A DNA stretch of 64,000 nt, taken from assembly GCF_056746865.1 (NCBI RefSeq), contig NZ_CM163382.1, one strand, 5' to 3'. The notes under the pieces were generated by a model. The model was not told the origin of the DNA. It searched no databases and saw only the letters and a program-made list of their open reading frames with translations. The position numbers and the translations under genes were made by a program. Position 1 is the stretch's first letter; each line of letters starts with the position of its first letter. Positions 4,008 to 64,000 of the stretch are shown here, piece after piece.

Positions 4008-4034
4008 AATAAATCACCTTACAGTTACAATAGG

Positions 4035-6559: not shown

Positions 6560-6621
6560 GAAACTCCTTTTTAATTATAAAATTAAAATATAGAAATATA
6601 TATTATTCTGATACTATAAGG

Positions 6622-6849
6622 TTAATACTGACTAATCCACCACAATAGATCACTTAATAACCACCCACAGGATTTCTTTCCAATAGTTTTACGTGGCGGG
6701 AATTTTCCTTCACGTTCCAGTTTCCAGGCTTGTGAACGAGAAATAGACGTAATTTTCTGGCGTTCCTTTTCTCGTACCAGTCTGTCACAGGTGTATCCAT
6801 AGATCTTCAAAATTGATAAACGGTTCTCATCTCTTAACGGCTTCCACAT
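6622..6849 (-). CDS. AlpA-family prophage transcriptional regulator / excisionase-like protein, 75 aa
   Basis: ORF 6622..6849; SRSQAWKLEREGKFPPRKTIGKKSCGWLLSDLLWW resembles the AlpA HTH core; AGGAGA RBS. Confidence 0.65.
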   Translation of the reverse strand: MWKPLRDENRLSILKIYGYTCDRLVREKERQKITSISRSQAWKLEREGKFPPRKTIGKKSCGWLLSDLLWWISQY

Positions 6850-7628: not shown

Positions 7629-9233
7629 ATGGTAACTAAAAAGGTAAAAACAAACCACCCGTACTATCGTGTTTTATCCGGCACCTCCATGCCGTTTCCC
7701 CACATACATGAAGCTGTTTCCGAACAGTTGCTTCTACTCATTTTCAAAGCACGCAGATTGTATCTGGATCCAGAATATCGTCCTTGGTTTGATGAACAAC
7801 ATCGGATTCTCTCGGCATTACGCGCTAACACAAAACTCCAAAGTATTTTAGAGAAAAACAGAGAGAACTACTCCATAAGTGAGACCGATAATCCACTATC
7901 TAAAGATCTGTATGCTGCTTTTCAGGTTATGTGCCATTTATACAATGGTTTTGATAACAGACTCGTCAGCCTGAAAACCTGGGGAGATATGAACAGGGAA
8001 CCAACAGCAAAATTTGTCGGCCAAAATAGTGGTGGCTGGAAAACACCTGAGATGGAAGAATTCGTCAGAAACGATTTGTTCAATATTCTGACAGATTGTA
8101 AAGCTCATTGCTCACCACTTCCCGCTCTGGTTCGACAAGGATATTGCCATCAGGATCTTTCTGTTGCGCACTCATGTACTAAAGAATTACTGGAACAACT
8201 GAACCGATACCATCAAATTGATGAATCAGCGATACTTGCCAGAACCCTTGGTTTGGCTATTAACAACTGCTATCACTCAGAAACAGAGATTCCTGAATGG
8301 CTTTCTCCTTTTGAAAATGAATACAAAAGTCCCTGGAATTGTGAGAAACCAGATACTAACGATGTGAGTAAACTTAGAAAACAATTGCTAACAATCGGGC
8401 GTACAGAATTCGTGGACAAAATGTTTTCGCTAGCCAACAAAAATGCAACAAAGATAATATATGATGGATACGTTAAACTTTATGCTCTGGAAATATATGA
8501 ATGGTTAAATAAATTAGTGCAATATTTTAAAGGAAATGATTTTATTCGTTACACCTGGAAGTTCACAACAATTATTTCCGATGAAAGTGACACGATTGAA
8601 AACACCACCGCATGGGAAAAAGACTATTGTCAAATCACTATACAGCGTGATGAACTTCTGAAACTGATTTATACCAATACCCTGCAGGATGCAGCAATGA
8701 ATCTTGCTGATTGCCTGCAACAGGCATACACAGAACCGTTAAAAATGGAAATAAATTATCCAGGAATAAACATTGATGCAAAAGAGCGTAAAATTAGAAA
8801 ATCTATTGAATTCAGGAGCGAACTGAATAACTTCACAAACATCATGAAACAACTGGAAATATTTGAAAAATGGTATAACGCCAATAAAATTCTGTTGGTA
8901 AGTAACAAAAAGATACGTACAGAAAAGATTGACGTGAATATTCGTCTTGCAGGACTAAAAGGCTATGATCTGAATGAAGGTATACCTGATGGTCAGGGAC
9001 GCAGAATTAAAGATGGTGTAAATGAACTTGTCAAGGCAGATGGCAGTCTACAACTTCCACAAGATATCAGTGACACTTCGCTTAACCGTTACCGTCAAGC
9101 AGTTCAACACATTATTAAGGATGAGATCGACACGTTGCTGATAGCACAGAGGGAAAAAAATAAAATAAATCCATATAGCGAAGATAGATACTCGATACGA
9201 CCTTTATGGGGAAAATGTCTGGTCGAACAGTAA
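7629..9233 (+). CDS. hypothetical protein, 534 aa, no domain recognisable by eye; integrase-proximal cargo
   Basis: ORF 7629..9233; GGAAG upstream of the ATG; AT-rich; preceded by a 780-bp AT-rich non-coding region. Confidence 0.6.
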   Translation: MVTKKVKTNHPYYRVLSGTSMPFPHIHEAVSEQLLLLIFKARRLYLDPEYRPWFDEQHRILSALRANTKLQSILEKNRENYSISETDNPLSKDLYAAFQVMCHLYNGFDNRLVSLKTWGDMNREPTAKFVGQNSGGWKTPEMEEFVRNDLFNILTDCKAHCSPLPALVRQGYCHQDLSVAHSCTKELLEQLNRYHQIDESAILARTLGLAINNCYHSETEIPEWLSPFENEYKSPWNCEKPDTNDVSKLRKQLLTIGRTEFVDKMFSLANKNATKIIYDGYVKLYALEIYEWLNKLVQYFKGNDFIRYTWKFTTIISDESDTIENTTAWEKDYCQITIQRDELLKLIYTNTLQDAAMNLADCLQQAYTEPLKMEINYPGINIDAKERKIRKSIEFRSELNNFTNIMKQLEIFEKWYNANKILLVSNKKIRTEKIDVNIRLAGLKGYDLNEGIPDGQGRRIKDGVNELVKADGSLQLPQDISDTSLNRYRQAVQHIIKDEIDTLLIAQREKNKINPYSEDRYSIRPLWGKCLVEQ

Positions 9234-9315
9234 CTCACTGAGAAAGGGGATAGCAGTTCGCTATCCCCAAAGGAGACTTTCCAGCAAGATCTCAAAAAAT
9301 GAGACACTCAGCAAA

Positions 9316-34184: not shown

Positions 34185-35150
34185 ATGAATACTGTCGGCA
34201 CGCCGTTGCTATGGGGCGGATTCGCTGTTGTTGTCGCCATTATGCTGGCTATCGACCTGTTGTTGCAGGGGCGTCGTGGGGCACATGGCATGACCATGAA
34301 ACAGGCTGCGGCCTGGTCGCTGGTCTGGGTGACGCTGTCGTTACTGTTTAACGCCGCTTTCTGGTGGTATCTGGTGCAAACCGAAGGTCGCGCCGTTGCC
34401 GATCCACAGGCACTGGCCTTTCTCACGGGTTATCTGATTGAGAAATCGCTGGCGGTCGATAACGTCTTTGTCTGGCTGATGTTGTTCAGCTATTTCTCTG
34501 TTCCGGCGGCGTTACAACGGCGCGTGCTGGTGTATGGCGTGCTCGGGGCGATTGTTCTGCGTACCATCATGATCTTCACTGGCAGCTGGCTGATTTCGCA
34601 GTTCGACTGGATCCTGTATATCTTCGGTGCCTTCCTGCTGTTTACCGGCGTGAAGATGGCGCTGGCCCATGAAGATGAATCAGGCATTGGCGACAAGCCG
34701 CTGGTGCGCTGGCTACGCGGTCATTTGCGCATGACCGACACCATCGACAACGAGCATTTCTTTGTGCGTAAGAATGGCTTGCTGTATGCCACGCCGCTGA
34801 TGCTGGTGCTGATTCTGGTGGAATTGAGCGACGTGATTTTCGCCGTGGATAGCATTCCGGCTATCTTCGCCGTGACCACTGACCCGTTCATTGTGCTGAC
34901 CTCAAACCTGTTTGCGATCCTCGGCCTGCGTGCGATGTATTTCCTGCTGGCGGGCGTAGCAGAACGTTTCTCGATGCTCAAATATGGCCTGGCGGTGATT
35001 CTGGTGTTTATCGGTATCAAGATGCTGATTGTCGACTTCTACCATATTCCAATCGCCGTCTCGCTGGGCGTGGTGTTTGGCATTCTGGTGATGACGTTTA
35101 TTATCAACGCCTGGGTGAATTATCGGCATGATAAGCAGCGGGGAGAATGA
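34185..35150 (+). CDS. alx: TerC-family inner-membrane protein Alx, 321 aa
   Basis: ORF 34185..35150; synteny and length. Confidence 0.9.
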
Positions 35151-35765
35151 TTCGCTGTATATTAAGCCATTACTAGAGATAACTCATTCCAGACAAAGGT
35201 GAGCTATTAATTATGTAATCGGCTTATAGCTCTTTACAAAAAGACCGCACGGGTGTTGGTGGCGTCAAAATCGCCGAAGCGTTCCCTGGAGGCCGGGGCG
35301 ACGCGCATGGATGCGCGGCGAGGGCGCATCTTACAGGGACGTTCCCTTGCGCCCGACCCGGTAGCCGCAAGGGATAAGCTGAGGGAACCGCGCAGCGGCG
35401 ATTTTGTTCGCCAGAGCCTGGGGGTGCAGGGGGCGGCGGCGATTGGCCGCCCCCTGCGCGCTCCCTGCGGCATTGACTTTATATGGCATAGCACATTAAA
35501 GGAGCGCAACCGTTCTCATATTCCAAATAGTTTTGCCCATATGTTATCTAATCAGCCTTAGTAGCCAGTCCTTCCCTCTGTTTATGTCAAATAAATGTAA
35601 CCATGAAGTTGCAAAATATGACCTCTCTTTAAAATCCAGCATTTTTCGCTTCCCGAAGCTGTAACTTTCCTTATACTCGACCTTGCAAACACTTTGTTAC
35701 ATCCTGAAAGATGCGTCGACAGAACGCACCAGGGATGTGCGACAACACAATGAAAGGATCGAAAA

Positions 35766-37010
35766 ATGACTACGCAACGTTCACCGGGGCTATTCCGGCG
35801 TCTGGCTCATGGCAGCCTGGTAAAACAAATCCTGGTCGGCCTTGTTCTGGGGATTCTTCTGGCATGGATCTCAAAACCCGCGGCGGAAGCTGTTGGTCTG
35901 TTAGGTACTTTGTTCGTCGGCGCACTGAAAGCCGTTGCCCCCATCCTGGTGTTGATGCTGGTAATGGCGTCTATTGCTAACCACCAGCACGGGCAGAAAA
36001 CCAATATCCGTCCTATTTTGTTCCTCTATCTACTGGGCACCTTCTCTGCTGCTCTGGCCGCAGTAGTCTTCAGCTTTGCCTTCCCTTCTACCCTGCACTT
36101 GTCCAGTAGCGCGGGTGATATTTCGCCGCCGTCAGGCATTGTCGAAGTGATGCGCGGGCTGGTAATGAGCATGGTTTCCAACCCCATCGACGCGCTGCTG
36201 AAAGGTAACTACATCGGGATTCTGGTGTGGGCAATTGGCCTCGGTTTCGCACTGCGTCACGGTAACGAGACCACCAAAAACCTGGTCAACGATATGTCGA
36301 ATGCCGTCACCTTTATGGTGAAACTGGTCATTCGCTTCGCACCGATCGGTATTTTTGGTCTGGTTTCTTCTACCCTGGCAACCACCGGTTTCTCCACACT
36401 GTGGGGCTACGCGCAACTGCTGGTCGTGCTGGTTGGCTGTATGCTGCTGGTGGCGCTGGTGGTTAACCCCTTGCTGGTGTGGTGGAAAATTCGTCGTAAC
36501 CCGTTCCCGCTGGTGCTGCTGTGCCTGCGCGAAAGCGGCGTGTACGCCTTCTTCACCCGCAGCTCTGCGGCGAACATTCCGGTGAATATGGCGCTGTGTG
36601 AAAAGCTGAATCTGGATCGCGATACCTATTCCGTTTCTATTCCGCTGGGTGCCACCATCAATATGGCGGGCGCAGCAATCACCATTACCGTGTTGACGCT
36701 GGCTGCGGTTAATACGCTGGGTATTCCGGTCGATCTGCCCACAGCGCTGCTGTTGAGCGTAGTGGCTTCTCTGTGTGCCTGTGGCGCATCCGGCGTGGCG
36801 GGGGGTTCTCTGCTGCTGATCCCACTGGCCTGTAATATGTTCGGTATTTCGAACGATATCGCCATGCAGGTGGTTGCCGTCGGCTTTATCATCGGCGTAT
36901 TGCAGGACTCTTGCGAAACCGCGCTGAACTCTTCAACTGACGTGCTGTTCACTGCGGCAGCTTGCCAGGCAGAAGACGATCGTCTGGCAAATAGCGCCCT
37001 GCGTAATTAA
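35766..37010 (+). CDS. sstT: serine/threonine:Na+ symporter, 414 aa
   Basis: ORF 35766..37010; length and synteny. Confidence 0.9.
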
Positions 37011-37014
37011 TTGT

Positions 37015-37566
37015 TTAACCCCTTTCGTCTACGGCGGAAGGGGTTTTCTCTACTTTAAACGGATCAATTCCCCTTTTCTGCATCCGCCAGAAACGAATGA
37101 TATTCAGACCATTCATCAGCAGAAAACTCCCCTCAATCATCGTGCCGCCTATCGACCCCGCCCAGAAGTTGTGAATCACCCAGCAACACGTTGAAAACCA
37201 CATTACGCAGCGCATGGTCAGCCCTTTACAGCGGAACAGCGCCCAGGTACTGACAATCGTGCCGATTACCGGCAGTAGTTCGACAGGATGATGGAACTTC
37301 GCGAGGCCAATTCCGCCAGTCAGCACAATAAAAATCGCCATTACCCATAAGCTGCGCGTGCGTAAAGTAATCAGCGTACGAATGGCATTAAGGATGGCAC
37401 TGGCACCAGCGGGATAGGTGCCCAGAAGAAAAAAATGTACGCCAATAACGGCGCTATAGACCGAAAGCTGCTTTTTGAAGCGACGTTCGTCACGATTGAA
37501 AAATGTTGTGATACCGATCAGAAAGGCGATGACACCCACGCCCTGGGCCAGCCAATACGCGGTCAT
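37015..37566 (-). CDS. ygjV: inner-membrane protein YgjV, 183 aa
   Basis: ORF 37015..37566; hydrophobic; synteny. Confidence 0.8.
   Translation of the reverse strand: MTAYWLAQGVGVIAFLIGITTFFNRDERRFKKQLSVYSAVIGVHFFLLGTYPAGASAILNAIRTLITLRTRSLWVMAIFIVLTGGIGLAKFHHPVELLPVIGTIVSTWALFRCKGLTMRCVMWFSTCCWVIHNFWAGSIGGTMIEGSFLLMNGLNIIRFWRMQKRGIDPFKVEKTPSAVDERG
37016..37055. terminator. hairpin terminator between sstT and ygjV
   Basis: aaccccttcgtctacggcggaaggggtt followed by ttctctacttt. Confidence 0.5.
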
Positions 37567-37648
37567 GATAAATCCTTAGCAGGTATGGAAAAGCAAACGG
37601 CGCTTCACATTATGAAACGCCGTTTTTTATTAACAACTCATTTCGACT

Positions 37649-39136
37649 TTATAGCGTTACGCCGCTTTTGAAGATCGCCAGTTCGCGGAAGTCGTTACGC
37701 TCGTTGCAGGTTTGTTTACCATTGGCAAACTCAACGATGGTATCGATAAATTCTTCCAGCAACTGCGGCATCGCTTTACCGTGGATCAGCTGACCCGCGT
37801 CAAAGTCGATCCAGTGTTTTTTCTTCGCCGCCAGTTCACTGTTGGTGGCGATTTTCACCGTCGGCACAAATCCACCATACGGCGTGCCACGACCAGTACT
37901 GAACAGCACCATATGGCAGCCCGCACCCGCCAGGGCGCTGGTCGCTACGGCATCGTTACCCGGCGCACTTAACAAGTTCAGCCCCGGTGTTTTCAGACGC
38001 TCACCGTAACGCAGCACGTCAACCACGACGCTGGAACCCGCTTTCTGGGTACAGCCAAGTGATTTGTCTTCCAGCGTGGTGATACCGCCCGCTTTGTTCC
38101 CCGGCGATGGGTTTTCATAGATCGGCTGGTCATGGGCAATAAAGTACTGCTTGAAGTCATTGACCATGGTGACCAGTTTTTCAAACGTTGCTTCGTCGCG
38201 GCAATGGTCCATCAGCAACTGCTCTGCGCCAAACATCTCCGGCACTTCGGTCAGTACGGTAGTACCGCCGTTAGCAATCACGTAGTCAGAGAAACGCCCC
38301 AGCATCGGGTTAGCAGTAATACCAGAAAGACCGTCAGAACCACCGCACTCCAGACCAAACTTCAGTTCGCTGAGTTTGCCTGGCTCGCGCTTGTCGTTGC
38401 GCATCACGTTATACAGCTGATGCAGATGCTCGATCCCGGCTTCGATCTCATCATCCTGCTGTTGGCAGATCATGAAATGAACGCGTTCAGGATCGATATC
38501 GCCCAGCGTTTCACGGAATGCGGTAACCTGGTTGTTTTCACAGCCCAGACCAATCACCAGCACTGCGCCTGCGTTCGGGTGGCGCACCATGTTTTGCAGC
38601 ATGGTGCGGGTATTAATGTGATCGTCGCCCAGCTGTGAGCAGCCGTAGGTGTGGCTGAAGAGGAACACGCCGTCGGTACCTTCAGCGTTGTTGGTCTCTT
38701 TCAGAAAACGGTTCTGGATCTGCCGCGCGATGCCGTTAACACAGCCCACGGTTGGCAGGATCCACAGCTCATTGCGCACCCCGACATCGCCGTTAGCGCG
38801 ACGATAGATCTGCACTTCACGATCTGCCGCTTGCGCAGGCAGATCCTGAAAATCAGGTTGATAGCGATACTGATCCAGATCGCTCAGATTCGTGCGCGTA
38901 TTGTGGGCGTGAACGTGTTCCCCCGCCGCAATATCCGCCAATGCATAACCAATCGGCAGGCCATATTTGATGACGTTGGCCCCTTTTGCGATATCCGTTA
39001 ACGCAAATTTATGTCCACGAGCAACATCCTGGCGCAGCGTAACAGTCTGGTTGTCGACACTGACTTCTGTGCCTTCCGCCAAATCTGCTAAAGCGACCGC
39101 GACGTTATCCAGCGCATGGATCTTGATGTATTGCAT
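37649..39136 (-). CDS. uxaA: altronate dehydratase, 495 aa
   Basis: ORF 37649..39136; length and synteny. Confidence 0.9.
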   Translation of the reverse strand: MQYIKIHALDNVAVALADLAEGTEVSVDNQTVTLRQDVARGHKFALTDIAKGANVIKYGLPIGYALADIAAGEHVHAHNTRTNLSDLDQYRYQPDFQDLPAQAADREVQIYRRANGDVGVRNELWILPTVGCVNGIARQIQNRFLKETNNAEGTDGVFLFSHTYGCSQLGDDHINTRTMLQNMVRHPNAGAVLVIGLGCENNQVTAFRETLGDIDPERVHFMICQQQDDEIEAGIEHLHQLYNVMRNDKREPGKLSELKFGLECGGSDGLSGITANPMLGRFSDYVIANGGTTVLTEVPEMFGAEQLLMDHCRDEATFEKLVTMVNDFKQYFIAHDQPIYENPSPGNKAGGITTLEDKSLGCTQKAGSSVVVDVLRYGERLKTPGLNLLSAPGNDAVATSALAGAGCHMVLFSTGRGTPYGGFVPTVKIATNSELAAKKKHWIDFDAGQLIHGKAMPQLLEEFIDTIVEFANGKQTCNERNDFRELAIFKSGVTL

Positions 39137-39150
39137 ATCAACCCCAGACC

Positions 39151-40665
<1,515 letters not shown>

Positions 40666-48124: not shown

Positions 48125-48490
48125 ATGGACTGGTATCTGAAAGTACTAAAAAATTATGTCGGTTTCCGGGGTCGTGCGCGGCGCAAAGAGTACTGGATGT
48201 TTATTCTGGTCAACATCATCTTTACGTTCGTGCTGGGGCTGCTGGATAAAATGTTAGGCTGGCAACGCGCTGGTGGCGAAGGCATCCTGACAACAATCTA
48301 CGGTATTCTGGTGTTTTTACCGTGGTGGGCGGTTCAGTTCCGCCGCCTGCACGACACCGACCGCTCGGCGTGGTGGGCACTGCTGTTCTTAATCCCGTTT
48401 ATCGGCTGGCTTATTATCATCGTCTTTAACTGCCAGGCGGGTACGCCAGGCGAAAACCGCTTTGGACCTGATCCAAAACTGGAACCTTAA
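48125..48490 (+). CDS. yhaH: DUF805 inner-membrane protein YhaH, 121 aa
   Basis: ORF 48104..48490; start at MDWYLKVLKNYVGFRGRARRKEYW. Confidence 0.8.
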   Translation: MDWYLKVLKNYVGFRGRARRKEYWMFILVNIIFTFVLGLLDKMLGWQRAGGEGILTTIYGILVFLPWWAVQFRRLHDTDRSAWWALLFLIPFIGWLIIIVFNCQAGTPGENRFGPDPKLEP

Positions 48491-49044
48491 AACAAATCTG
48501 CTCGCCGGATGTCTGACTCATCCGGCTTTTATCATCATGTTGATGAATGAATAATTTACTAATGTTTAGTTAAAATATTTCAATGTCGTTATATAAATTA
48601 CATATAAAAAACAACCATATATTTATCTTAAATATTAAAACCTTTATAACATCCGAAAAAGAAAGATACGAATAGCATTTACACAATACCCGGAATAGAC
48701 TTTCGTCACTTTTAATTAAAGGGATGTTTTTATGCAGTGGTATTTATCCGTATTAAAAAATTATGTTGGTTTCTCTGGTCGCGCACGTCGTAAAGAGTAC
48801 TGGATGTTTACTCTGATTAACGCCATCGTCGGCGCTATTATCAATGTCATTCAATTGATTTTAGGTTTAGAGTTTCCGTTCCTTTCTCTCATTTACCTGG
48901 CAGCAACAATCATTCCGGTCATTGCTCTGTGCGTTCGTCGTCTGCATGATACTGACCGTTCAGGTGCGTGGGCGCTTCTCTATCTGGTACCGATCATTGG
49001 CTGGTTAGTTCTGTTTGTATTTGCCTGTTGGTAATGACTCCAAC

Positions 49045-49548
49045 TTATTGATAGTGTTTTATGTTCAGATAATGCCCGATGACTTTGTCATGCAGCTCCA
49101 CCGATTTTGAGAACGACAGCGACTTCCGTCCCAGCCGTGCCAGGTGCTGCCTCAGATTCAGGTTATGCCGCTCAATTCGCTGCGTATATCGCTTGCTGAT
49201 TACGTGCAGCTTTCCCTTCAGGCGGGATTCATACAGCGGCCAGCCATCCGTCATCCATATCACCACGTCAAAGGGTGACAGCAGGCTCATAAGACGCCCC
49301 AGCGTCGCCATAGTGCGTTCACCGAATACGTGCGCAACAACCGTCTTCCGGAGCCTGTCATACGCGTAAAACAGCCAGCGCTGGCGCGATTTAGCCCCGA
49401 CGTATCCCCACTGTTCGTCCATTTCCGCGCAGACGATGACGTCACTGCCCGGCTGTATGCGCGAGGTTACCGACTGCGGCCTGAGTTTTTTAAATGGCGG
49501 AAAATCGTGTTGAGGCCAACGCCCATAATGCGGGCGGTTGCCCGGCAT
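49045..49548 (-). CDS. insB: IS1 InsB (frame expressed as InsAB' by -1 frameshift), 167 aa
   Basis: ORF 49045..49548, recognised as the IS1 InsB frame. Confidence 0.9.
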
Positions 49549-49742
49549 CCAACGCCATTCATGGCCATATCAATGATTTTCTGGTGCGTACCGGGTTGAG
49601 AAGCGGTGTAAGTGAACTGCAGTTGCCATGTTTTACGGCAGTGAGAGCAGAGATAGCGCTGATGTCCGGCAGTGCTTTTGCCGTTACGCACCACCCCGTC
49701 AGTAGCTGAACAGGAGGGACAGCTGATAGAAACAGAAGCCAC
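49467..49742 (-). CDS. insA: IS1 InsA, 91 aa
   Basis: [43 protein letters not shown]... Confidence 0.95.
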
Positions 49743-49915
49743 TGGAGCACCTCAAAAACACCATCATACACTAAATCAGTAAGTTGGCAGCATCACCTTG
49801 CCTGTTTAGAGGGCAATTCTGGCAGCAATCGTTACGGAAACGATCCGAAATTTGGTTCAAATTAATATTAAAATTGGGGCGATATTTCGCCCCTTGTTAT
49901 TAACAATAACAAATA

Positions 49916-50812
49916 TTATTTTCCGCTAAAAAGTTTGGGAATTTCCCGCAGACACCAGGATTTCGCTTCCCCCATACTGTCACGACGCCAGGCCATAATA
50001 ATATCGATCTCGCTGGTCGATTCCGGGCTGACGACACGCAACCGCCCTTCCGCAATATCTTTTTCGACCATCGGATACGGCATCGTCGCCACGCCAAGCC
50101 CCGCCAGTAATGCCTGACGTTTATCTTCAATCGTGCTCACCGTTAAGCGCGGCTGTTTGTCCAGCAGCTGTACGGTCAACACCGGGCGCTCACGAGCGGT
50201 ATCCGCCACCGCAATTCCACGATATTTCACGCGCGTCACTTCAGATAACGGTTCCGGCTCCTGATGAATCGGGTGATCAGGCGCGGCAACGTAGACGTTC
50301 ATTAACGTATAGAGCTTGCGCGAGTTGATCTCCGACGAGGAACGAAAATGCATATCCGGCGCGATAACAATATCCGCCCGCCCCTGCTCCAGCCGTTCCC
50401 ACGCCCCCGCCAGCACTTCGGTGATAATTGCCAGTTGGGTATTGGCTTTTGCCGCCAGTTTGTCGATTAACGGGAAAAAGGCAGGTGTCGGTACCAGCGC
50501 CTCGGTCACAATGGTGAGATGCGTTTCCCAACCGCGCGCGAGAGCTTCCGCATCGGTAGTCAGTTTATCTGCGGCTTCCAGCAAAACGCGCCCTCGCTCC
50601 AGCAACATCCTCCCGACATTGGTGAATTTGGTGCGATGGCCCGAGCGGTCAAACAGCACCACATCCAGCTCTTCTTCCAGTTTTTGCATGGTGTAGCTAA
50701 GTGCGGAAGGCACGCGTCCCAGCTCATCCGCCGCCGCCGCAAAACTGCCCCGGCGATCGATCGCATCCATAACCCGTAGTGCTTCCAGCGTTAATGCCCT
50801 TTCTTTGGCCAT
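49916..50812 (-). CDS. yhaJ: LysR-family transcriptional regulator, 298 aa
   Basis: ORF 49916..50812; LysR-type HTH (TLEALRVMDAIDRRGSFAAAADELGRVPSALSYTMQKLE). Confidence 0.85.
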   Translation of the reverse strand: MAKERALTLEALRVMDAIDRRGSFAAAADELGRVPSALSYTMQKLEEELDVVLFDRSGHRTKFTNVGRMLLERGRVLLEAADKLTTDAEALARGWETHLTIVTEALVPTPAFFPLIDKLAAKANTQLAIITEVLAGAWERLEQGRADIVIAPDMHFRSSSEINSRKLYTLMNVYVAAPDHPIHQEPEPLSEVTRVKYRGIAVADTARERPVLTVQLLDKQPRLTVSTIEDKRQALLAGLGVATMPYPMVEKDIAEGRLRVVSPESTSEIDIIMAWRRDSMGEAKSWCLREIPKLFSGK

Positions 50813-50916
50813 TTCGTTCTCATTCAGGAAATTTGAACATACCGGGCAGAATATCTGGCTAACAATGTAGCGTCCAGCCCCTTACCATAAAAGGAAGTAA
50901 AGAGAGGTCAAGAATT

Positions 50917-51618
50917 ATGATTACTACCCGAACTGCCAGGCAGTGTGGACAAGCAGACTACGGATGGTTGCAGGCCCGGTATACTTTTTCCTTTGGACAC
51001 TACTTCGACCCGAAATTGTTAGGCTATGCCTCCCTGCGCGTGCTTAACCAGGAAGTGCTGGCCCCAGGTGCCGCCTTTCAGCCGCGAACCTATCCCAAAG
51101 TCGATATTTTAAATGTGATTCTGGATGGAGAAGCAGAGTATCGCGACAGCGAAGGCAATCATGTTCAGGCCAGCTCCGGTGAGGCGTTGCTGCTCTCTAC
51201 CCAGCCGGGTGTCAGCTATAGCGAACACAATCTCAGCAAAGACAAACCGTTAACGCGAATGCAGCTTTGGCTGGATGCCTGCCCGCAGCGAGAGAATCCG
51301 CTGATTCAAAAGCTGGCGCTTAATATGGACAAGCAGCAATTAATCGCCTCGCCAGAGGGTGCGATGGGAAGCCTGCAATTACGCCAACAAGTGTGGCTGC
51401 ACCATATCGTGCTCGACAAAGGCGAAAGTGCGAATTTCCAGTTGCATGGGCCACGCGCGTATTTGCAATCGATTCACGGGAAATTTCATGCGCTTACGCA
51501 TCATGAAGAGAAAGCGGCGCTAACCTGCGGTGATGGGGCGTTTATTCGTGACGAGGCTAACATTACGCTGGTTGCCGATTCCCCACTGCGCGCTTTGCTG
51601 ATAGATTTGCCTGTCTAG
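50917..51618 (+). CDS. yhaK: pirin-like bicupin protein, 233 aa
   Basis: ORF 50917..51618; divergent from yhaJ. Confidence 0.85.
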   Translation: MITTRTARQCGQADYGWLQARYTFSFGHYFDPKLLGYASLRVLNQEVLAPGAAFQPRTYPKVDILNVILDGEAEYRDSEGNHVQASSGEALLLSTQPGVSYSEHNLSKDKPLTRMQLWLDACPQRENPLIQKLALNMDKQQLIASPEGAMGSLQLRQQVWLHHIVLDKGESANFQLHGPRAYLQSIHGKFHALTHHEEKAALTCGDGAFIRDEANITLVADSPLRALLIDLPV

Positions 51619-51640
51619 TTGTTTTTACAGGGAGATGATG

Positions 51641-51805
51641 ATGAGTAAAAAATCGGCCAAAAAGCGTCAGCCAGTGAAGCCCGTGGTGGCGAAAGAACCT
51701 GCTCGCACCGCCAATAATTTTGGCTATGAAGAGATGTTGAGCGAGCTGGAAGCCATCGTCGCGGATGCTGAAACGCGTTTAGCCGAGGATGAAGCTACCG
51801 CGTAA
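51641..51805 (+). CDS. yhaL: small protein YhaL, 54 aa
   Basis: Hand-translated MSKKSAKKRQPVKPVVAKEPARTANNFGYEEMLSELEAIVADAETRLAEDEATA; GGAG upstream; below the 60-aa cutoff of the ORF track. Confidence 0.7.
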   Translation: MSKKSAKKRQPVKPVVAKEPARTANNFGYEEMLSELEAIVADAETRLAEDEATA

Positions 51806-51935
<130 letters not shown>

Positions 51936-51937
51936 GT

Positions 51938-53248
51938 TTATCTGGCCTTGCTCGCCATAATCTCGATAATCTGCCGATCCGTTTGCTGCATCGAATGGCT
52001 TGCTAACGCACACAGGTTGGCAATCGACTGCTCAACATCATGCGCCACAATCCCTTCATTGCCGGTCACGGCGGTATCATCCAGCGCCATTAACACCGCT
52101 TTCCACGCAGCCGAAGCACTGGTCGAAACCTTCATCGCGCAGCTGTTCGACGCACCATCGCAAATCATGCCGCTGACATCGCCGATCATACTGCTGATCG
52201 CCATCGAAATGGTTTCATAACGCCCATCCACCAGCCATGCCATCCCGGCGGCGGCCCCCATTGCTGCGGTCGTTGCGGCACAAAGCGCAGACAAACGCGG
52301 TAACTGGTTATGGATGTAAATCGCGCTCAAATGCGAAAGCATCAGCGCACGCGCCAGCCGTTCATCATCCGCTCCGAAGTGTTCTGCTACCACCACCACA
52401 GGCATTGTTGCGGTGATCCCTTGGTTACCCGAGCCGGAGTTACTCATTGCCGGAAGCGTAGCGCCGCCCATACGCGCATCGGATGCCGCGCTGGTACGAA
52501 TCACAATGGATGAAGAGAGATCTTTCGCCAGCAAACCGCGCGCGCACTGTTTTTCCAGCGTCGCACCAATATGCAGCCCCCAGTTACCGCTCAAACCTTC
52601 CTGCGATAACGCACAATTTAACTTCGCAGAATCGAGAATAAAGCGGATCGCCGCAAACGGGACTTCATTGACGAACTTCAGGATCTCAGCCAGCGTCGTC
52701 CTGGAAAGCACCGTCAGCGGCGACTCTTGCTCGCCCTCTGTCACACACGCCTGCTGGGTAAACACCACACCATTGTGCGTCTCAATATGCACAATGTTGG
52801 TATGCCCGCCGACAATGGTGACACACGCCCACTTCTCACCGTTCCAGACTTTGGCGCGTGAGAAGAGGATTTCATCGCAAGGTTCCTGGATCTTAACTGA
52901 GACTTTCCCCGCCGCCAGCAGTGCTTTGGCATCGGCAATTGCCTGCGCAGTTGCATCTTTCAGCACTTCCAGCCCGGCGTTAGCATTTCCACCTAACGCT
53001 CCCAGCGCCGCCGCAATCGGCAGCCCCACCATTCCCGTGCCGGGAACGGTGACGCCCAGACCGTTCTTCATCAGATTTGGCGAAACCCAGGCTTCTACAC
53101 GTTCAACCGGACCTTCCAGTTCAGCCGCAGCAACCGCCGCTGCCAGCGCCAGTGAAATCGGTTCAGTACACCCCAGCGCCGGTTTTACCTCCTCCTGAAC
53201 GGCGAGGATGTAACGCTGCCATAACGGATTTAAAGTCGAATCAAACAT
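51938..53248 (-). CDS. cyuA: L-cysteine desulfidase, 436 aa
   Basis: ORF 51938..53248; synteny (formerly yhaM). Confidence 0.85.
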
Positions 53249-53275
53249 ATTAAAAACCTTAAAATTTCAGGTAAA

Positions 53276-54607
53276 TCAAGAAAATGCCAGGAACGGAGAA
53301 ACACAAAGCAACAAACCAGTGACGATAATCAGGTACAGAGACATCCCTTTGTATTTGTGCAATGCCGGTACTTTGTAAACCAGCCACGCCGGGATCAGGC
53401 ACCCTACCATGCCGAAAATCGGGCTACAGATAGAGGTGAAGCTCAACACCGGGGCGTTCAGTACGATGGCGCTCCAGGCCAGCAAAATGGCGAAAATCAT
53501 GATGCCGCGCTGAACGAGATTTTCGTTAATCTTCTCGGCAGGTATCTTGCGACGCAGGATGTTCATTACGATCCCTTGCGTTGCTTCGCGAAAGCCTAAA
53601 TAGACGCCAAAGAATGCAGTCATTACAGCAAAGATATTGAGAATGACGCTGACCACTTTCACCCACGCTGCGCCGTCACCGCTAATAAACTGTGCGGCAA
53701 TCGCCAACGCGGAAATATTCTGCTCGTAGGCTTTTACCGCTTCGTCATGTCCCATCGCCAGCGTGAACGACACGGCGTAGAAAAAGACGGTGACAAACAA
53801 AATGCCAAACGCGATATTCATTGCCCGCAATGCTTTATGCCGCGCCACTTCAATTGATTTTTCCCGCGAGCGATAAGAGATCACCATCGGGCTTAACGTC
53901 TGGATAAACAGAATCGACGTCAGGGTAAACGGCAGCGTAATAATGGCGTTTTTCACCAGCAGCCCCAGCGGCGGTAGCGAACCGACGTTATACAGATGCC
54001 ACATTCCCACCATCGACACGCCCAGCGCCGCGACCACCAGCAGCTTGGTCAGCACCATGCCCGTCGAAATTTTGAATAACAATTTCTCGCCGCGTGAGGA
54101 GATCGCCACCAGAATGCAAATCAGTACCAGACCATAAAAGGGACTGTCTGACAGCAACCCTTCCGTCACGCCGAAGGTATGCAGGTAGGAAGCACTATCG
54201 TTGGTGATGGCGGTGGAATAGACGAACATCCAAATCACCAGCATTACGAAATAGAGTGCACCTAACAGGATGCCCCAGTTTTTACCTAAATAGCCGCTAA
54301 TGACGCTCGGGTAATCTTTACATTCTGGTGATTCTGCCAGCGTATTAATAAACAACCGCTGAAACAGATACATTGCCGGGTAACCAATCACCGATGAGAG
54401 CAAAAATACCCACAATCCCATCAAACCGACCTGCACCGGGAGAAAAACAATCCCCGCGCCAATCGCCATCCCGATACTCATAATCACCCAGCCGGTGTCA
54501 GTACTGTCGAATTTGATCGCTTCTCGCCACTCGCTCTCACTCATTCCAGCACGACCCGCCGGGGTCGAAGCGTCTGCAATGACGCCTTTATTCGATGCAA
54601 TTTCCAT
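53276..54607 (-). CDS. cyuP: cysteine/serine transporter (HAAAP family), 443 aa
   Basis: ORF 53276..54607; polytopic membrane protein; formerly yhaO. Confidence 0.85.
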   Translation of the reverse strand: MEIASNKGVIADASTPAGRAGMSESEWREAIKFDSTDTGWVIMSIGMAIGAGIVFLPVQVGLMGLWVFLLSSVIGYPAMYLFQRLFINTLAESPECKDYPSVISGYLGKNWGILLGALYFVMLVIWMFVYSTAITNDSASYLHTFGVTEGLLSDSPFYGLVLICILVAISSRGEKLLFKISTGMVLTKLLVVAALGVSMVGMWHLYNVGSLPPLGLLVKNAIITLPFTLTSILFIQTLSPMVISYRSREKSIEVARHKALRAMNIAFGILFVTVFFYAVSFTLAMGHDEAVKAYEQNISALAIAAQFISGDGAAWVKVVSVILNIFAVMTAFFGVYLGFREATQGIVMNILRRKIPAEKINENLVQRGIMIFAILLAWSAIVLNAPVLSFTSICSPIFGMVGCLIPAWLVYKVPALHKYKGMSLYLIIVTGLLLCVSPFLAFS

Positions 54608-54882
54608 AATTTCTCGCTCAATATTTTGTAGGGCTTATTATTTTTTTCCGAGCCGCATCAAGGCGATATGCGGTCTACGTTTTTGCAGGCGAGTTATTAG
54701 AATAAAGAAATGATACGCGCGAGGTCAGAGAAAATCTTCACAATCAAGACTTTGAAATAACGGAGATGGATAAGAATTTTCTACTAAATTAATCGCAAGA
54801 GAATATTCATTCTCTATTTGCGGCAGATCACAAAAAAAAAGGTGCACATTTGTGCACCCAATGATGAAAGCTGACAGTAATG

Positions 54883-56247
54883 TCAGCCGCAGACCACTTT
54901 AATGGCCAGTCCTCCGCGTGATGTTTCGCGGTATTTATCGTTCATATCTTTGCCGGTTTCATACATCGTCTCGATCACTTTATCGAGTGAAACACGCGGT
55001 GCCGAGGTGCGGCGCATCGCCATCCGTGCGGCATTTACTGCTTTCACGGCATTAATGGCATTACGTTCAATGCACGGGATTTGTACCTGTCCGGCAACCG
55101 GATCGCAGGTCAGCCCAAGGTTATGCTCCATCGCGATTTCCGCCGCATTGCACACCTGCGCCGGACTGCCGCCCAGGAGTTCAGTTAACCCTGCCGCCGC
55201 CATTGAACAGGCCACGCCAATCTCCCCCTGACAGCCGACTTCCGCGCCAGAGATGGAGGCGTTCATTTTATACAGCGCGCCAATAGCCCCCGCTGCCAGA
55301 AAATAGCGGGCAATTGACCGCTCGTTTACCGGACGACGGAACTTATCGTAATAAGCCAGCACTGCCGGAATAATGCCGCACGCACCGTTAGTCGGTGCCG
55401 TTACCACACGCCCGCCAGCTGCGTTTTCTTCACTAACCGCCAGCGCGTACATATTGATCCAGTCGATGACATTCATCGGATCGTTAGAGATGTTATCGCT
55501 GGAAACCAGCTGACGACGCAGCGCTACGGCACGACGCGGCACATTGAGCGGACCAGGCAGCACGCCTTCAGTGTTCATCCCGCGTTCAATACCGTCATGC
55601 ATCACTTGCCAGATACGGGCAAACCCTGCGTCAATTTCCGCTTTGCTGCGCAGCGCCAGCTCGTTGTGCATCATCAGACCAGATATAGACAGGCCGTTGT
55701 AATCACACATTTTCAGCAGTTCACCTGCTGAGTGGAAATCGTAAGGTACGGACGTTTCGACATCGTGCGACAGGCCGAAGTGTTCTTCTTCGACAATAAA
55801 CCCGCCGCCGACAGAGTAATAGGTTTTACTTAATAGCGCTTCCTGTCCCTTCCAGGCAGTGATCCGCATTCCGTTCTCATGGCGAGGCAACATTTCGGGA
55901 TGGAAGATAATGTTTTTTGCTACAGGAAAATCAACAATATGCGCACCAGATGCCACTGGCAGCCGCCCGCTGCGCGTTACTAACTCTATAAATGCAGGGA
56001 TCTCATCAATGACAACATCCTGCGGACTATTTCCTGCCAGTCCCATGATGATGGCGACATCCGTGGCATGGCCTTTGCCCGTCAGTGACAACGACCCGTA
56101 CAGATCGACCACAATATGGCTCGTCGCGGTTAATAAGCCGCTACTTTCCAGCCGATCAATAAAACTTTTTCCGGCATTCATTGGCCCCACGGTATGCGAA
56201 CTGGAGGGACCAATCCCAATTTTGAAAATATCGAATGCACTAATCAT
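54883..56247 (-). CDS. tdcG: L-serine dehydratase TdcG, 454 aa
   Basis: ORF 54883..56253; start at [23 protein letters not shown]. Confidence 0.9.
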
Positions 56248-56318
56248 ATCCACACCCTCGGATTGCCGTTCAGTGAAGTGGAGCGGAACGACCTTGCGAC
56301 CGTCCCGCTCACGAGGCT

Positions 56319-56708
56319 TTACGCACTACGTACTGCGATGGCTTCAATTTCCAGCTTCACATCTTTCGGCAAACGCGCGACCTGTACACAGCTCCGGGTC
56401 GGGTAGGTCGCCTGATGCTCATCGAAGAACTGCTTATAGACTTCGTTGATGGTGGCAAAATCATTCAGATCGGTGATGAACACGGTCATCTTGATGATAT
56501 CGCCCACGCTCAGCCCGGCAGCAACCACGATCGCTTTGACGTTTTCGAGGCTTAAACGCGCCTGATCTTGCACATCAGCCGGGATCTCACCGGTCTGTGG
56601 GCAAACCGGAATTTGACCGGAGGTGAAGACCATGCTGCCTAAATCAACGCCCTGAACATAAGGGCCGATTGCGTCTGGGGCACGTTGCGTTTCGATAATC
56701 TTTTTCAT
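56319..56708 (-). CDS. tdcF: RidA-family enamine/imine deaminase TdcF, 129 aa
   Basis: ORF 56319..56771; start at the internal MKKIIETQRAPDAIGPYVQG. Confidence 0.9.
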   Translation of the reverse strand: MKKIIETQRAPDAIGPYVQGVDLGSMVFTSGQIPVCPQTGEIPADVQDQARLSLENVKAIVVAAGLSVGDIIKMTVFITDLNDFATINEVYKQFFDEHQATYPTRSCVQVARLPKDVKLEIEAIAVRSA

Positions 56709-56721
56709 ACATCCTCCGGCG

Positions 56722-59016
56722 TCAGAGCGCCTGGGTAAAGGTACGTGAAATAACATCCTGCTGCTGTTCACGGGTCAGTGCGTTGAAGCGCACGGCGTAG
56801 CCAGAGACACGGATTGTCAGGTTAGGATATTTTTCCGGGTGCTCGATGGCATCCAGCAGCATTTCCCGATTCATTACGTTGACGTTGAGGTGTTGACCGC
56901 CTTCGACATCCGCTTCGTGGTGGAAATACCCATCCAGCAGGCCGACAAGGTTGGTTTTACGTACTGGATCTTCTTTGCCCAGCGCCGCAGGCACGATCGA
57001 GAAGGTGTACGAGATCCCGTCTTTGGCGTAGGTGAACGGCAGTTTCGCCACCGACGTCAATGAGGCCACGGCACCTTTGCGGTCACGACCGTGCATCGGG
57101 TTAGCGCCCGGTGCGAACGGTGTACCCGCACGACGACCGTCTGGCGTGTTACCGGTTTTCTGGCCGTACACCACGTTAGAAGTGATAGTCAGAATCGACT
57201 GGGTAGGGACGGCGTTGCGATAGGTTGGCAGCGCTTTAATTTTCTTCATAAAGCGTTCAACCAGGTCGCAGGCAATACTGTCTACGCGCTCGTCGTTGTT
57301 GCCGTACTGCGGATATTCACCGTCGATTTCGAAATCCACCGCCAGGCCGTTTTCGTCACGGATTGGTTTCACGCGGGCATATTTGATAGCAGACAGGGAG
57401 TCCGTCGCCACCGACAGGCCCGCGATGCCGCACGCCATGGTGCGATAGACATCACGATCGTGTAGCGCCATCAGCGAAGCTTCGTAGCTGTACTTGTCGT
57501 GCATGTAGTGAATGATATTCAGCGCGCTGATGTACTGCACCGCCAGCCAGTCCATGAAGTGATCGAGACTGTCCATCACTTTGTCGTAATCCAGCACGTC
57601 GTCCATCAGCGGTGCCGTTTTCGGACCGACCTGAATCTTCAGCTTCTCATCCACCCCGCCGTTAATTGCGTACAGCAGCGTTTTCGCCAGGTTAGCGCGT
57701 GCACCAAAGAACTGCATTTGCTTACCAATCACCATTGGGCTGACGCAGCAGGCAATCGCGTAATCGTCGCTGTTGAAGTCAGTACGCATCAGATCGTCGT
57801 TTTCATACTGCAAGGAAGAGGTGACGATCGACACCTGCGCGGCATATTTTTTGAAGGCAATCGGTAATTCTTCCGACCAAAGAATGGTCAGGTTAGGTTC
57901 CGGTGCCGGCCCCATAGTGTGCAGGGTGTGCAAATAGCGGAAGGAGTTTTTGGTCACCAGCGTACGACCGTCCAGCCCCATCCCGCCGATCACTTCCGTC
58001 GCCCAGATTGGGTCGCCGGAGAACAGCGAATCAAATTCCGGTGTACGCAGGAAGCGTACCATACGGATCTTCATGATGAAGTGATCGATCAGTTCCTGTG
58101 CCTGCTGCTCATTGAGTACGCCAGCTTTAAAGTCGCGCTCAATGTAGATATCGAGGAACGATGCCGTGCGCCCCAGCGACATCGCGCCGCCATTTTGCGA
58201 TTTCACTGCCGCCAGATAAGCGAAGTAGAGCCACTGCACCGCTTCCTGTGCATTCTGCGCCGGGCGAGAGATATCAAAGCCATATTTCGCCGCCATTTCC
58301 TGAATCTGCAAAAGCGCATGACGATGCTCTGCCAGCTCCTCACGCAGACGGATAGTGGCTTCCAGATCCTCGCCTTTTTCCAGACGGGACTGGAGATCGG
58401 CAAATTGCAGTTCGCGTTCCCGCACCAGATAACTGATGCCATACAGCGCCACGCGGCGGTAGTCACCGATAATGCGCCCACGGCCATAACCATCTGGCAA
58501 ACCAGTCAGTACACCCGATTTACGGCAGCGCAGCATATCTGGTGAGTAAACATCAAATACGCCCTGATTATGGGTTTTACGCAGATCGGTAAACAGATAT
58601 TCAAATTCACTGTCCATTTCACGGCCATAGGCGTGGAATGAACTTTTAATCATATTAATGCCACCGAACGGATGCAGCGCACGCTTTAATGGCGCATCCG
58701 TTTGCAGGCCCACTATTTTTTCCAGCGGCTGGTTAATATATCCCGCATCATGAGCGGTAATGGTGGTAGCAATATTAGTATCGAAATCAACCGGCGCGTG
58801 GGTTGCGTTTTCGATACCAATGCCTTCCATCACTTTTTCCCACAATTCCGTGGTGGCTGGCGTCGCTTCAGCGAGGAAAGATTCATCGCCTTCATACGGT
58901 GTATAGTTATGTTGAATAAAATCGCGGACATTAATTTCGTTTTTCCAGTCCGTACCTTTAAAGCCAAGCCATGCGTCGGCGTACAGCTTATCGCTGGTAT
59001 CAATATCTACCTTCAT
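56722..59016 (-). CDS. tdcE: 2-ketobutyrate/pyruvate formate-lyase TdcE, 764 aa
   Basis: ORF 56722..59016; glycyl-radical C-terminus (RVSGYAVRF). Confidence 0.9.
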
Positions 59017-59049
59017 GAAAAATAATCTCTCTACAATACTTCAACTAAA

Positions 59050-60258
59050 TTATGCAAATTCTGCGGGCGCGTTAACTTTGCCTAAATGAATGGCATCCAA
59101 AGCAATCATTTTTTCTTCGTTGGTTGGGATAACGGCGCAAATGACACGCGCATTTTCACTGGAAACAATTCGCTCTCCACAGGAGTTAGAGCGATTATTC
59201 ATTTCTGTATCAATCTCTACGCCTAATACAGCCAAATGTTCCATGACCAGACGACGAATTAAACTTGAATTTTCTCCTATTCCGCCGGTGAATATAATTC
59301 CATCCAGGCGACGTAATGAGGCTGCGTGTCCGGCAATATGACGGGCAATTCGGTGAACAAAGGTTTTAATTGCCAGTTGCGCGCGTTCGTGACCTTCATG
59401 CCAGGCTTTTTCCAGAACACGTAAATCCGAAGAAAGACCGGAAATACCTAATAATCCCGACTCTTTATTCACTACGCGTTCCAGGTCACCCAGGCTCTGG
59501 TTGGTTTGGCTGGCGACCCAGGACATCGCCCCGAAGTCGACATCACCACTGCGGGTACCCATCATCAAGCCTTCCAGCGGCGTCATTCCCATTGAGGTAT
59601 CAACACTCTGACCGTTGCGAACTGCGCAGATTGACGCGCCATTGCCAAGATGCGCCACAACCAGGCCGGAGTCATCTTCCGCCAGATTCAGCAAAGAATG
59701 CGCGCGCTGGGAAACATAGCGGTGCGACGTGCCGTGGAAACCATAACGGCGTACACCTAACTCTTCATAATATTTCCACGGCAGGCCGTATAAATAAGCT
59801 TCCGGAGCCATCGTCTGGTGGAAACTGGTATCAAATACCGCTACCTGAGTTACGCCCGGAAATAATTGCTGCGCCGATTCAATACCACTTAAATTGGCGT
59901 AATTATGCAGGGGTGCCAGTGGAGAAACGCGACGGATATTATCAATGACTTCATCGGTAATAATGGCGGACTCGGTAAAAATACTGCCGCCGTGAGCGAT
60001 GCGGTGGCCAATTAAGGCCACACTGTCATTTAAATTCCGTTTTTCCAGTTCAAATGCAATTGCCTTCAATGCACCTTCGTAGCTGTGGTGAGCCAGCGGT
60101 GCTGGCTCTCCCCCATTTACGGATAAGAATGCATTTTCCGAGTTAATACCGTCGGCAATACCTGACATTAATACTTCACAGTCGCTGGCATCGAGTACGG
60201 AAAACTTAATCGAAGACGAACCACAGTTAATAACCAAAACAACCGGAAATTCATTCAT
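59050..60258 (-). CDS. tdcD: propionate/acetate kinase TdcD, 402 aa
   Basis: ORF 59050..60270; start at [21 protein letters not shown]. Confidence 0.9.
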
Positions 60259-60283
60259 CTCTTTTCTCATCCTGAGTTACGGA

Positions 60284-61618
<1,335 letters not shown>

Positions 61619-61636
61619 CTATCCTCAACGAATTAA

Positions 61637-62626
61637 TTAAGCGTCAACGAAACCGGTGATTTGAGAGACGCGAGAAAGATCGATATTGCCGCCGGAAATA
61701 ATACTGACGGTTTTTCTGTTTTGAATATATTGGTCTAATTTACCGCTTAATAATGCAGCACATGCCAGAGCGCCTGCGCCTTCGGTGACGACTTTATTGC
61801 GCTGAATTAAGGCAATCATACTGTTTCTGATTTCATCTTCGCTGACCAGCACGATGTCATCGACTAATTCACGAACGATTTCGTAAGTTAAATTACCCGG
61901 GCGGGAGACATCACAACCATCCGCCAGGGTGCCGGTAGTTCGGTGCGTGGTTATTTCTCCGGAGTGGAAAGAAGCCGCCATGCCGTGAACGTTTTCTGAC
62001 TGTACGCCAATAACACGAATGGTCGGGTTAATAGATTTTATTGCCACCGCAATACCAGCAATTAAACCGCCACCACCAATTGGCACAATCACGTTATCGA
62101 CATCATAGAGATCTTCCATAATTTCCAGACCAATCGTTCCCTGGCCAGCAATCACTTTCGGATCATCGTAAGGTGGGATAAAAATACGGCCTTCCATTTC
62201 GACAATTTCGCTCACTTTAGCGATAGTGTCGTTGAAGTTATCACCATGCAGAACGACTTCTGCGGAGTAGTCGCACGTTGCCGCTACTTTGGATTTCGGC
62301 GCGCCTTTTGGCATCACCACTTTACCGTCGATACCCAGCATCGCGCAGGAGAGCGAAACCCCTTGCGCATGGTTGCCCGCAGAGCAGGCCACTACACCTT
62401 TACGTTTTTCCGCATCGGTCAGTGAACTTAATTTATTAAATGCGCCACGAATTTTAAATGAACCGGTACGCTGCATGTTTTCGAATTTGAGGAATATTTC
62501 ACCTTTGCAACGTTCACTAAAATAGTTGGAGCGAGGCATGCCTGTTTTATAAATTCGCCCAGCCAGTCGTTGTTTAGCTTCAATGATGTCATCAATAGCA
62601 ACCGGGAGATCGTATGTAATATGCAT
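61637..62626 (-). CDS. tdcB: catabolic threonine dehydratase TdcB, 329 aa
   Basis: ORF 61637..62626; PLP-lysine motif (SFKIRGA). Confidence 0.9.
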
Positions 62627-62724
62627 TATAAAACCTCTTAGCCTGAATTAAATATGTAGGTAACCGTAACCGACACCTGCAAAACAGACAGGTGGATTAT
62701 TTATGTTTAAATAAAAACAAATAA

Positions 62725-63663
62725 CTAACCAACTTCAATTAATTGCCTTCGTCTACACCCATTATAAGATGAATACTCTTTGGCTAATTCCACCAAAACC
62801 GATGCTGCTTTTTTAATACGATAATTTTTCGACCATACCGCGGCATATTGTGCCACAGGTAATGTTTCTTCAACCGGAATAGTAATAAATTGATTTGAAC
62901 CAAAAGGTGATGTCATATCACAAGGAATTACAGTTAAGAAATCAGCATTGAGAACAAGATTATAAATTGTCACGACTGAGTCGGTTTTAACGATGTTTTC
63001 AATACTGATGCCATTTCTTTGTAACGTGGTGAGCAGCTCGCTGTAGTACCCCATATTGGTTTGTGGCAACACCCACTGTTCGTTCTTCAACGACTCCAGC
63101 GTGGTGGTGCCGGTGCATGTTCGGGACTTACTGGCTACCAGCACAAACTCGGACTCGAACAGCGGCTCAACATGTAAATCCTGAAGCTTCATTTCTGCGC
63201 TTAACGTACCAATCGCAAAATCCAGTCGACCGTCGCGGATTGCCGGTAAGAACGAAGACAGTTGCGCTTCATACATAGAAACCTGCGCTTTCGGGAACAC
63301 CTCTTTGAACTTGTTGATCATCCCGGACATAAAAGTAAAACCAATCAATGAAGGAAAACCAAATGAGACTTCCACCACCGCCTCAGAAGACATACCGCTT
63401 ATCTCATTAACCATATTTTTCATTTCACGGGTAATGGATTCGGAACGGGAGAGTAACAATTGACCGGCAGGTGTTAATGTTACACCGGTATTTTTCCGCA
63501 CCACTAATTCCACGCCAAAATAATCTTCAATATCGTTAATGATTTTACTGACAGCCGGTTGAGTTAACCCTAATTCTTTTGCAGCCGAGCCGATAGAACC
63601 ACTTCTAATGACTTCCTGAAAGACTACCAGGTGCTGCGTTTTCGGAAGAAGAATAGTGCTCAT
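62725..63663 (-). CDS. tdcA: LysR-family activator of the tdc operon, 312 aa
   Basis: ORF 62725..63663; LysR-type HTH. Confidence 0.9.
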   Translation of the reverse strand: MSTILLPKTQHLVVFQEVIRSGSIGSAAKELGLTQPAVSKIINDIEDYFGVELVVRKNTGVTLTPAGQLLLSRSESITREMKNMVNEISGMSSEAVVEVSFGFPSLIGFTFMSGMINKFKEVFPKAQVSMYEAQLSSFLPAIRDGRLDFAIGTLSAEMKLQDLHVEPLFESEFVLVASKSRTCTGTTTLESLKNEQWVLPQTNMGYYSELLTTLQRNGISIENIVKTDSVVTIYNLVLNADFLTVIPCDMTSPFGSNQFITIPVEETLPVAQYAAVWSKNYRIKKAASVLVELAKEYSSYNGCRRRQLIEVG

Positions 63664-63726
63664 AACGACCTACGTTAATTACCTCATTGACGGCATGAAG
63701 TGTATCAAAATGAAATGAACAGGATA

Positions 63727-63742
63727 TGTGCGACCACTCACA
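63727..63742. promoter_or_regulatory. CRP-binding-site-like palindrome TGTGc-gaccac-TCACA upstream of tdcA
   Basis: 16-bp match to the TGTGA-N6-TCACA consensus 64-79 bp upstream of the tdcA start; the tdc operon is known to be cAMP-CRP dependent. Confidence 0.5.
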
Positions 63743-64000
63743 AATTAACTTTCAATACTTTCCATGGTATCGTTATTCCAATTAAATATCTTTATATATC
63801 AATAAGTTAAAGTATAAAAATCAGCATAAACCCTGATTTTTGTCAAAAAAAATGACGGGGATAACCATATTTTATGGCGATAACATCATTCGTTATGTGG
63901 TTAATACAAAAAAGGGGCTGAGACCATATTTCAAGCAATTACCGGATAATTACCAGGCAAATTTTGAGTTAAATTTAATGAGCAAGTTCTCAAATTTTAT

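Follow-up and report, generated by a model that had tools for sequence, protein, structure and literature searches.

A complete IS1 flanked by a 9-bp target duplication truncates yhaI in an Escherichia coli chromosome

Members of the IS1 family are recognised by a length of about 768 bp and by terminal inverted repeats, imperfect and about 23 bp long, that start with GGT(A/G)ATG. They prefer AT-rich DNA and generate target duplications of 8-9 bp (PMC5009759), and experiments have demonstrated that IS1 can move from plasmids into genes of the chromosome (bioRxiv 10.1101/2025.08.12.669853). The elements closest to the one described here are IS1B and IS1C of E. coli K-12 and the IS1 copies of plasmids, with which it shares its length, the terminal inverted repeats, insA and insB', the A6C slippery site, a 232-aa InsAB' product and a 9-bp duplication. 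The element itself shows no difference from these beyond a single base relative to K-12 IS1B. The interrupted gene, yhaI, has been treated as uncharacterised (PMC11551758); it is activated 36-fold by Ler in EHEC (PMC3891560) and modulated by CpxR and the Cpx system (PMC2731931). Our literature search found no papers linking yhaI with IS1. The element is a known one and the gene an ordinary yhaI, and the event is a textbook one in which only the position of the insertion is unrecorded in the collections searched.

The window, by which we mean the whole 64-kb stretch of DNA that was analysed, contains one IS1 copy. It occupies positions 49030-49797, is 768 bp long, starts with GGTAATGACTCC and ends with GGCAGCATCACC, and lies with its transposase genes on the minus strand, antisense to yhaI. 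A scan of the window with a degenerate IS1-end pattern, for which no match was expected by chance, returned only two matches, both belonging to this element: the right inverted repeat (IRR, 49030-49052, plus strand), which abuts the junction of yhaI codons 99 and 100, and the left inverted repeat (IRL, 49775-49797, minus strand). The left end reads GGTAATGACTCCAACTTATTGAT and the right end, as its reverse complement, GGTGATGCTGCCAACTTACTGAT. At the IRL, where the insA promoter is expected, there is a promoter-like site of the form CTGCCA-16-TATGAT (49790-49763, minus strand). It is followed by insA (49467-49742, minus strand), which encodes a 91-aa protein with a zinc ribbon and a helix-turn-helix, matching the paired Zn_ribbon_InsA/HTH_Tnp_IS1 profiles PF03811 (75.3 bits) and PF12759 (104.8 bits). 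The insB' frame is open for 167 aa (49045-49548, minus strand), overlaps insA and matches DDE_Tnp_IS1 (PF03400, 261.3 bits). The A6C slippery site of the programmed -1 frameshift is found at 49485-49491 on the minus strand (IS positions 307-313), and the InsAB' coding region that results from the frameshift (49045-49742, minus strand) specifies 232 aa, which score 261 bits against PF03400 and 243.8 bits against the NCBIfam IS1 transposase equivalog NF033558, whose cut-off is 100.

Compared with the curated mobile-element features of MG1655, the element agrees with K-12 IS1B and IS1C at 767 of 768 bases and differs from IS1A at 8. The sole base that differs from IS1B lies at IS position 704 and turns a Gln of InsB' into Leu, and the Leu form is the plasmid form. 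Plasmids of Escherichia, Klebsiella, Salmonella, Enterobacter and Citrobacter carry thousands of IS1 copies that match the window copy at 100% over its full 768 bp, and at least 4,900 records reached at least 99% identity among the at least 5,000 matches listed. The identical plasmid copies carry the label 'IS1-like element IS1B family'. Every feature of the family that could be examined is thus present, namely the length, the inverted repeats, the A6C frameshift, the profile scores, a duplication in the 8-9 bp range and near-identity to known copies. Judged by its sequence, the element is a standard IS1, intact throughout, of the kind that resistance plasmids carry, and all sequence requirements for transposition appear to be in place.

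The element is bordered by two copies of TTGCCTGTT, at 49021-49029 on the left and, as a script confirmed, at 49798-49806 on the right. The direct repeat is exactly 9 bp long, the flanks mismatching at the tenth base pair, and relatives with an empty site contain the sequence only once. Because these relatives carry the single copy at a site that is otherwise 100% identical, the repeat is a genuine duplication of the target rather than a coincidence. A sequence-only reading of this locus had proposed a complete 768-bp IS1 at 49030-49797 between identical 9-bp repeats, and both points hold base for base when the sequence is read and checked by script. The same reading had placed the element 119 bp from the 3' end of the convergent yhaJ gene. 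This too is correct as a difference of coordinates: the yhaJ stop codon starts at 49916, 119 positions from the last base of the IS at 49797, with 118 intervening bases. The region is AT-rich, with a GC content of 28-30% immediately before yhaI and of 37-46% inside the gene.

The gene order yqjG-yhaH-yhaI-yhaJ-yhaK is conserved, and yhaI is named as such in several RefSeq annotations. In the window the truncated yhaI (48732-49034, plus strand) consists of 99 native codons, followed by a Trp codon of mixed origin (49029-49031) and the stop TAA (49032-49034), and its product is 100 aa long and ends in FACW, where normal YhaI has 118 aa. The Trp codon is composed of the T that ends the target repeat and the GG that begins the IS, and TAA corresponds to IS bases 3-5, so that the previously noted replacement of the gene's end by one Trp codon and a stop supplied by the IS was seen in the open reading frame itself. 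The displaced 3' remnant, codons 100-118 (LEGNSGSNRYGNDPKFGSN) with the original stop, lies beyond the element at 49806-49865 on the plus strand. When the IS and one repeat were removed in silico, a 118-aa frame ending with the stop at 49863-49865 was restored, which substantiates the claimed loss of the last 19 codons. At the nucleotide level the restored gene does not differ from the DUF805 gene of strains 118UI and F374, which encodes 118 aa (WP_001198802.1).

YhaI belongs to the DUF805 (PF05656) small inner-membrane proteins, as does its intact paralog YhaH, encoded just upstream and annotated under that name in syntenic loci (48125-48490, plus strand; 121 aa counted from the ATG, with the open reading frame extending to a TTG at 48104; 120.7 bits). 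The two proteins are 53% identical and share, in the part that YhaI has lost, the conserved motif G-x-N-R-[YF]-G-x-D-P-K. Unlike these two proteins, the window allele is without the C-terminal 19 residues, the NR[YF]G-x-DPK tail among them. The restored protein scores 109.1 bits against the DUF805 profile and the truncated one 86.9 bits, with a cut-off of 25.7; the truncated protein covers profile positions 1-99 of 111, short of the full-length domain, and the last 11 or so aligned residues, in the tail, contribute about 22 of the 109 bits. A hydropathy scan placed the hydrophobic segments of YhaI within residues 23-71 and 78-103 and found the lost tail to be hydrophilic. Since the hydrophobic segments are kept but the conserved hydrophilic tail is gone, the allele is probably null or hypomorphic, its product being predicted to be insertable into the membrane but probably non-functional or weakened.

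Neighbouring genes are not expected to suffer polar effects, because no other gene follows yhaI on its strand before the convergent, intact yhaJ (49916-50812, minus strand; a LysR-type regulator, annotated in syntenic loci) and because a GC-rich hairpin between IS1 and yhaJ, GGGGCGATATTTCGCCCC (49876-49893), which is terminator-like on both strands, is still in place. The hairpin scan also flagged as terminator-like a weak new hairpin at the junction of yhaI and IS1 (49027-49044), GTTGG...CCAAC, with 5 pairs and followed by TTATTGAT. The scan returned 5 terminator-like sites where 2.0 +/- 1.5 were expected, so the junction hairpin is probably a chance occurrence.

The empty site was reconstructed from 600 bp on each side and one copy of the repeat, and many complete E. 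coli chromosomes match this query at 100% identity. In both of the closest relatives, 118UI and F374, the site is empty and yhaI is intact, encoding 118 aa. Outside the IS, 118UI differs from the window by a single mismatch across the 37,475 bp to the left (11555-49029) and by none across the 14,203 bp to the right (49798-64000), and F374 (NZ_OY754371.1) by about 100 SNPs. The junction between IS1 and yhaI, searched with queries of 501 bp and 80 bp, occurred in none of 5,426 complete E. coli genomes; its exact 52-nt sequence was not found in GTDB representative genomes or metagenome contigs, and the truncated YhaI of 100 aa had no exact match on record. The suggestion that the insertion is strain-specific is therefore supported, by the absence of the junction from the E. 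coli, GTDB and metagenome collections and by the empty site of the closest relatives. The further suggestion, that it could point to an IS1-rich lineage, neither gains nor loses weight from one copy in 64 kb, a typical complete E. coli genome having about 10 IS1-matching places. Comparison with reference genomes, which the sequence-only reading had recommended, gave the same picture, with an empty site in near-identical relatives and an intact yhaI in the great majority of genomes. Three strains that at first appeared to carry the same insertion (GN04592, MS 198-1 and GN02270, each with 777 additional bp) were rejected as carriers, their IS1 lying in the yhaI-yhaJ spacer at 49891-49899 and in the opposite orientation.

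Taken as a whole, these data are very probably explained by a single, simple transposition through which IS1 entered the chromosomal yhaI of an E. coli strain near its 3' end. According to this explanation, an intact IS1 of the variant common on enterobacterial plasmids would have transposed once into the end of the gene; cuts staggered by 9 bp in the target would then have been filled in, leaving TTGCCTGTT in duplicate. The choice of site would fit the known preference of IS1 for AT-rich DNA. As a consequence, the yhaI transcript would now continue into IS1, where it is antisense to the transposase genes, and would no longer reach its own terminator. We infer that the insertion is recent and private to the strain, because it is confined to that strain in our searches and because the copy does not differ from the plasmid consensus. 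A plasmid-borne donor is plausible, given the shared plasmid form of the sequence. Chromosomal IS1 copies close to that of the window, differing by 1-2 nt, occur in relatives, in EC14 (99.9% identical) and in GN04592 (99.7%), and identical chromosomal copies, which would count against a plasmid donor, may exist. The insertion provides a clean private marker of the strain or clone for strain typing and a natural C-terminal truncation of yhaI, and the locus is a small example of a plasmid-type IS1 in a chromosome.

This is not the only place near yhaI where IS1 has landed. Complete E. coli genomes contain at least 10 other IS1 sites in the AT-rich yhaH-yhaJ stretch (48618-49899 in window coordinates), at positions 48618-48876 and 49891-49899, each with its own 8- or 9-bp duplication. 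At least 4 of these other insertions are independent events inside the yhaI coding sequence (EC14, CH4796, Trp01 and M2), and the yhaH-yhaI spacer holds an IS1 insertion in three lineages. At least 60 genomes have IS1 close to yhaI, as counted with a query that joins flank and IS, for which the ranking favours such genomes and kinship is ignored. The alleles of EC14, CH4796, Trp01, M2, XYEH3314, 23CRST012, OW968288 and GN04592/MS 198-1/GN02270 thus share with the window allele the element family and the AT-rich stretch of about 1.3 kb, but in none of them is YhaI cut off at codon 99, and in several the element is another IS1 variant, either of the IS1A type (99.0%) or of a divergent type (93%). 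The divergent type was observed in the yhaH-yhaI spacer of 23CRST012 and OW968288, where the IS1 is 93.2% identical to the window copy and is flanked by 8-bp rather than 9-bp duplications; the data suggest that this allele is common to many genomes of some lineages. An apparent orientation bias, with the transposase on the minus strand in 9 of 10 other insertions, was rejected, since the search joins only pieces from the same strand and can recover only that orientation.

With such recurrence in mind, one may ask whether yhaH-yhaI-yhaJ is a true regional hot spot for IS1, or whether the loss of yhaI has been repeatedly selected in clinical and commensal E. coli. If either were the case, the window allele would be one among numerous separate insertions affecting the same membrane protein. 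We compared the yhaI segment with two other segments by means of identically designed chimeric queries, counting genomes with at least 80% coverage and ignoring shared ancestry. The yhaI segment gave 13 genomes, an AT-rich segment adjoining tdcA gave 7, and a GC-normal ebgA segment gave 0. A special hot spot at yhaI is therefore not indicated: insertions in the AT-rich control are about half as frequent as at yhaI and the GC-normal one has none, and AT-richness is a sufficient explanation. The preference for AT-rich DNA and the dispensability of these genes together account adequately for the recurrence without a hot spot peculiar to yhaI and without selection, and we regard this pair of possibilities as improbable. 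The activation of yhaI by Ler suggests that the yhaH-yhaI-yhaJ stretch is bound by H-NS. The independent IS1 insertions near yhaI, as a list, represent possible natural knock-out alleles for work on DUF805 proteins.

The stricter proposal, that yhaI is repeatedly inactivated because its loss is advantageous and that the present insertion is adaptive rather than neutral, can draw on the four or more independent insertions inside the gene in EC14, CH4796, Trp01 and M2, on the further ones in the flanking spacers, and on the strong regulation of yhaI, 36-fold by Ler in EHEC (PMC3891560) and modulated by Cpx (PMC2731931). However, the counts of 7 genomes for the tdcA-side control, 13 for yhaI and 0 for ebgA indicate that AT-rich targeting explains most of the recurrence, and yhaI remains intact in the great majority of genomes. 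An adaptive origin of this insertion is accordingly very unlikely.

An error of assembly, in which the assembler misplaced an IS1 repeat into yhaI, deserves mention because repeats are a classic source of misassembly and IS1 is multi-copy in most E. coli, with a median of about 10 matching places per genome among 5,426 complete genomes. A misplaced repeat, however, would not yield a perfect 9-bp duplication of a sequence that is single at an otherwise identical empty site; moreover, the element is of full length with both ends intact, and its flanks are collinear with 118UI and F374. The perfection of the target duplication in particular makes such an error very unlikely. A larger IS1-mediated rearrangement, although IS1 does cause adjacent deletions, as apparently at the locus of strain DLI.6n, has a negligible probability here, since the collinear flanks, with nothing missing on either side relative to 118UI or F374, and the intact duplication, together with the lack of a second IS1 in the 64 kb, rule out an adjacent deletion, an inversion or the end of a composite transposon at this copy, within the window. 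Simple transposition of one intact IS1 remains the reading that we prefer.

The locus of E. coli DLI.6n just mentioned (NZ_CP103974.1, 1834-2601) carries an IS1 just downstream of yhaI that has no target duplication and directly adjoins the rnpB/garK region, and it is without yhaJ and the whole yhaK-tdc segment. From the sequence, this arrangement looks like an IS1-mediated adjacent deletion.

Some further features of the window were observed away from yhaI. About 85 of the roughly 100 SNPs that distinguish F374 are clustered at 34856-40661 (alx-sstT-ygjV-uxaA-uxaC), where 118UI is identical to the window, and this cluster looks like a recombination patch separating otherwise close relatives. 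A search with Rfam at gathering thresholds gave no match in the whole 64 kb, which is somewhat unexpected given the presence of the alx leader in the region, and ARAGORN found no complete tRNA in the window. A genomic island that has integrated in tRNA-Ile takes up the left 11.5 kb (1-11601) with its right-hand end; a 47-nt copy of the 3' part of tRNA-Ile lies at 11555-11601, adjoining the gene for a tyrosine integrase (10042-11358, minus strand). The island encodes YagK/YfjJ-like proteins of the inovirus Gp2 type, a transposase of the IS3 family (2248-3234) and a LacI-family regulator (812-1822), and an alpha-galactosidase gene, according to the annotation of F374, runs off the left edge of the window. 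The island is absent from 118UI, in which tRNA-Ile is intact; it is present in F374, the only genome that has the island and the adjacent core as a single 100% identical piece of 24 kb. It is 100% identical in several genomes, and at least 80% of it is covered in 173. Within the gene for its IS3-family transposase, 9 SNPs relative to F374 are concentrated at 2586-2907, a cluster that suggests either that the IS copies are not the same one or that gene conversion has taken place among such copies.
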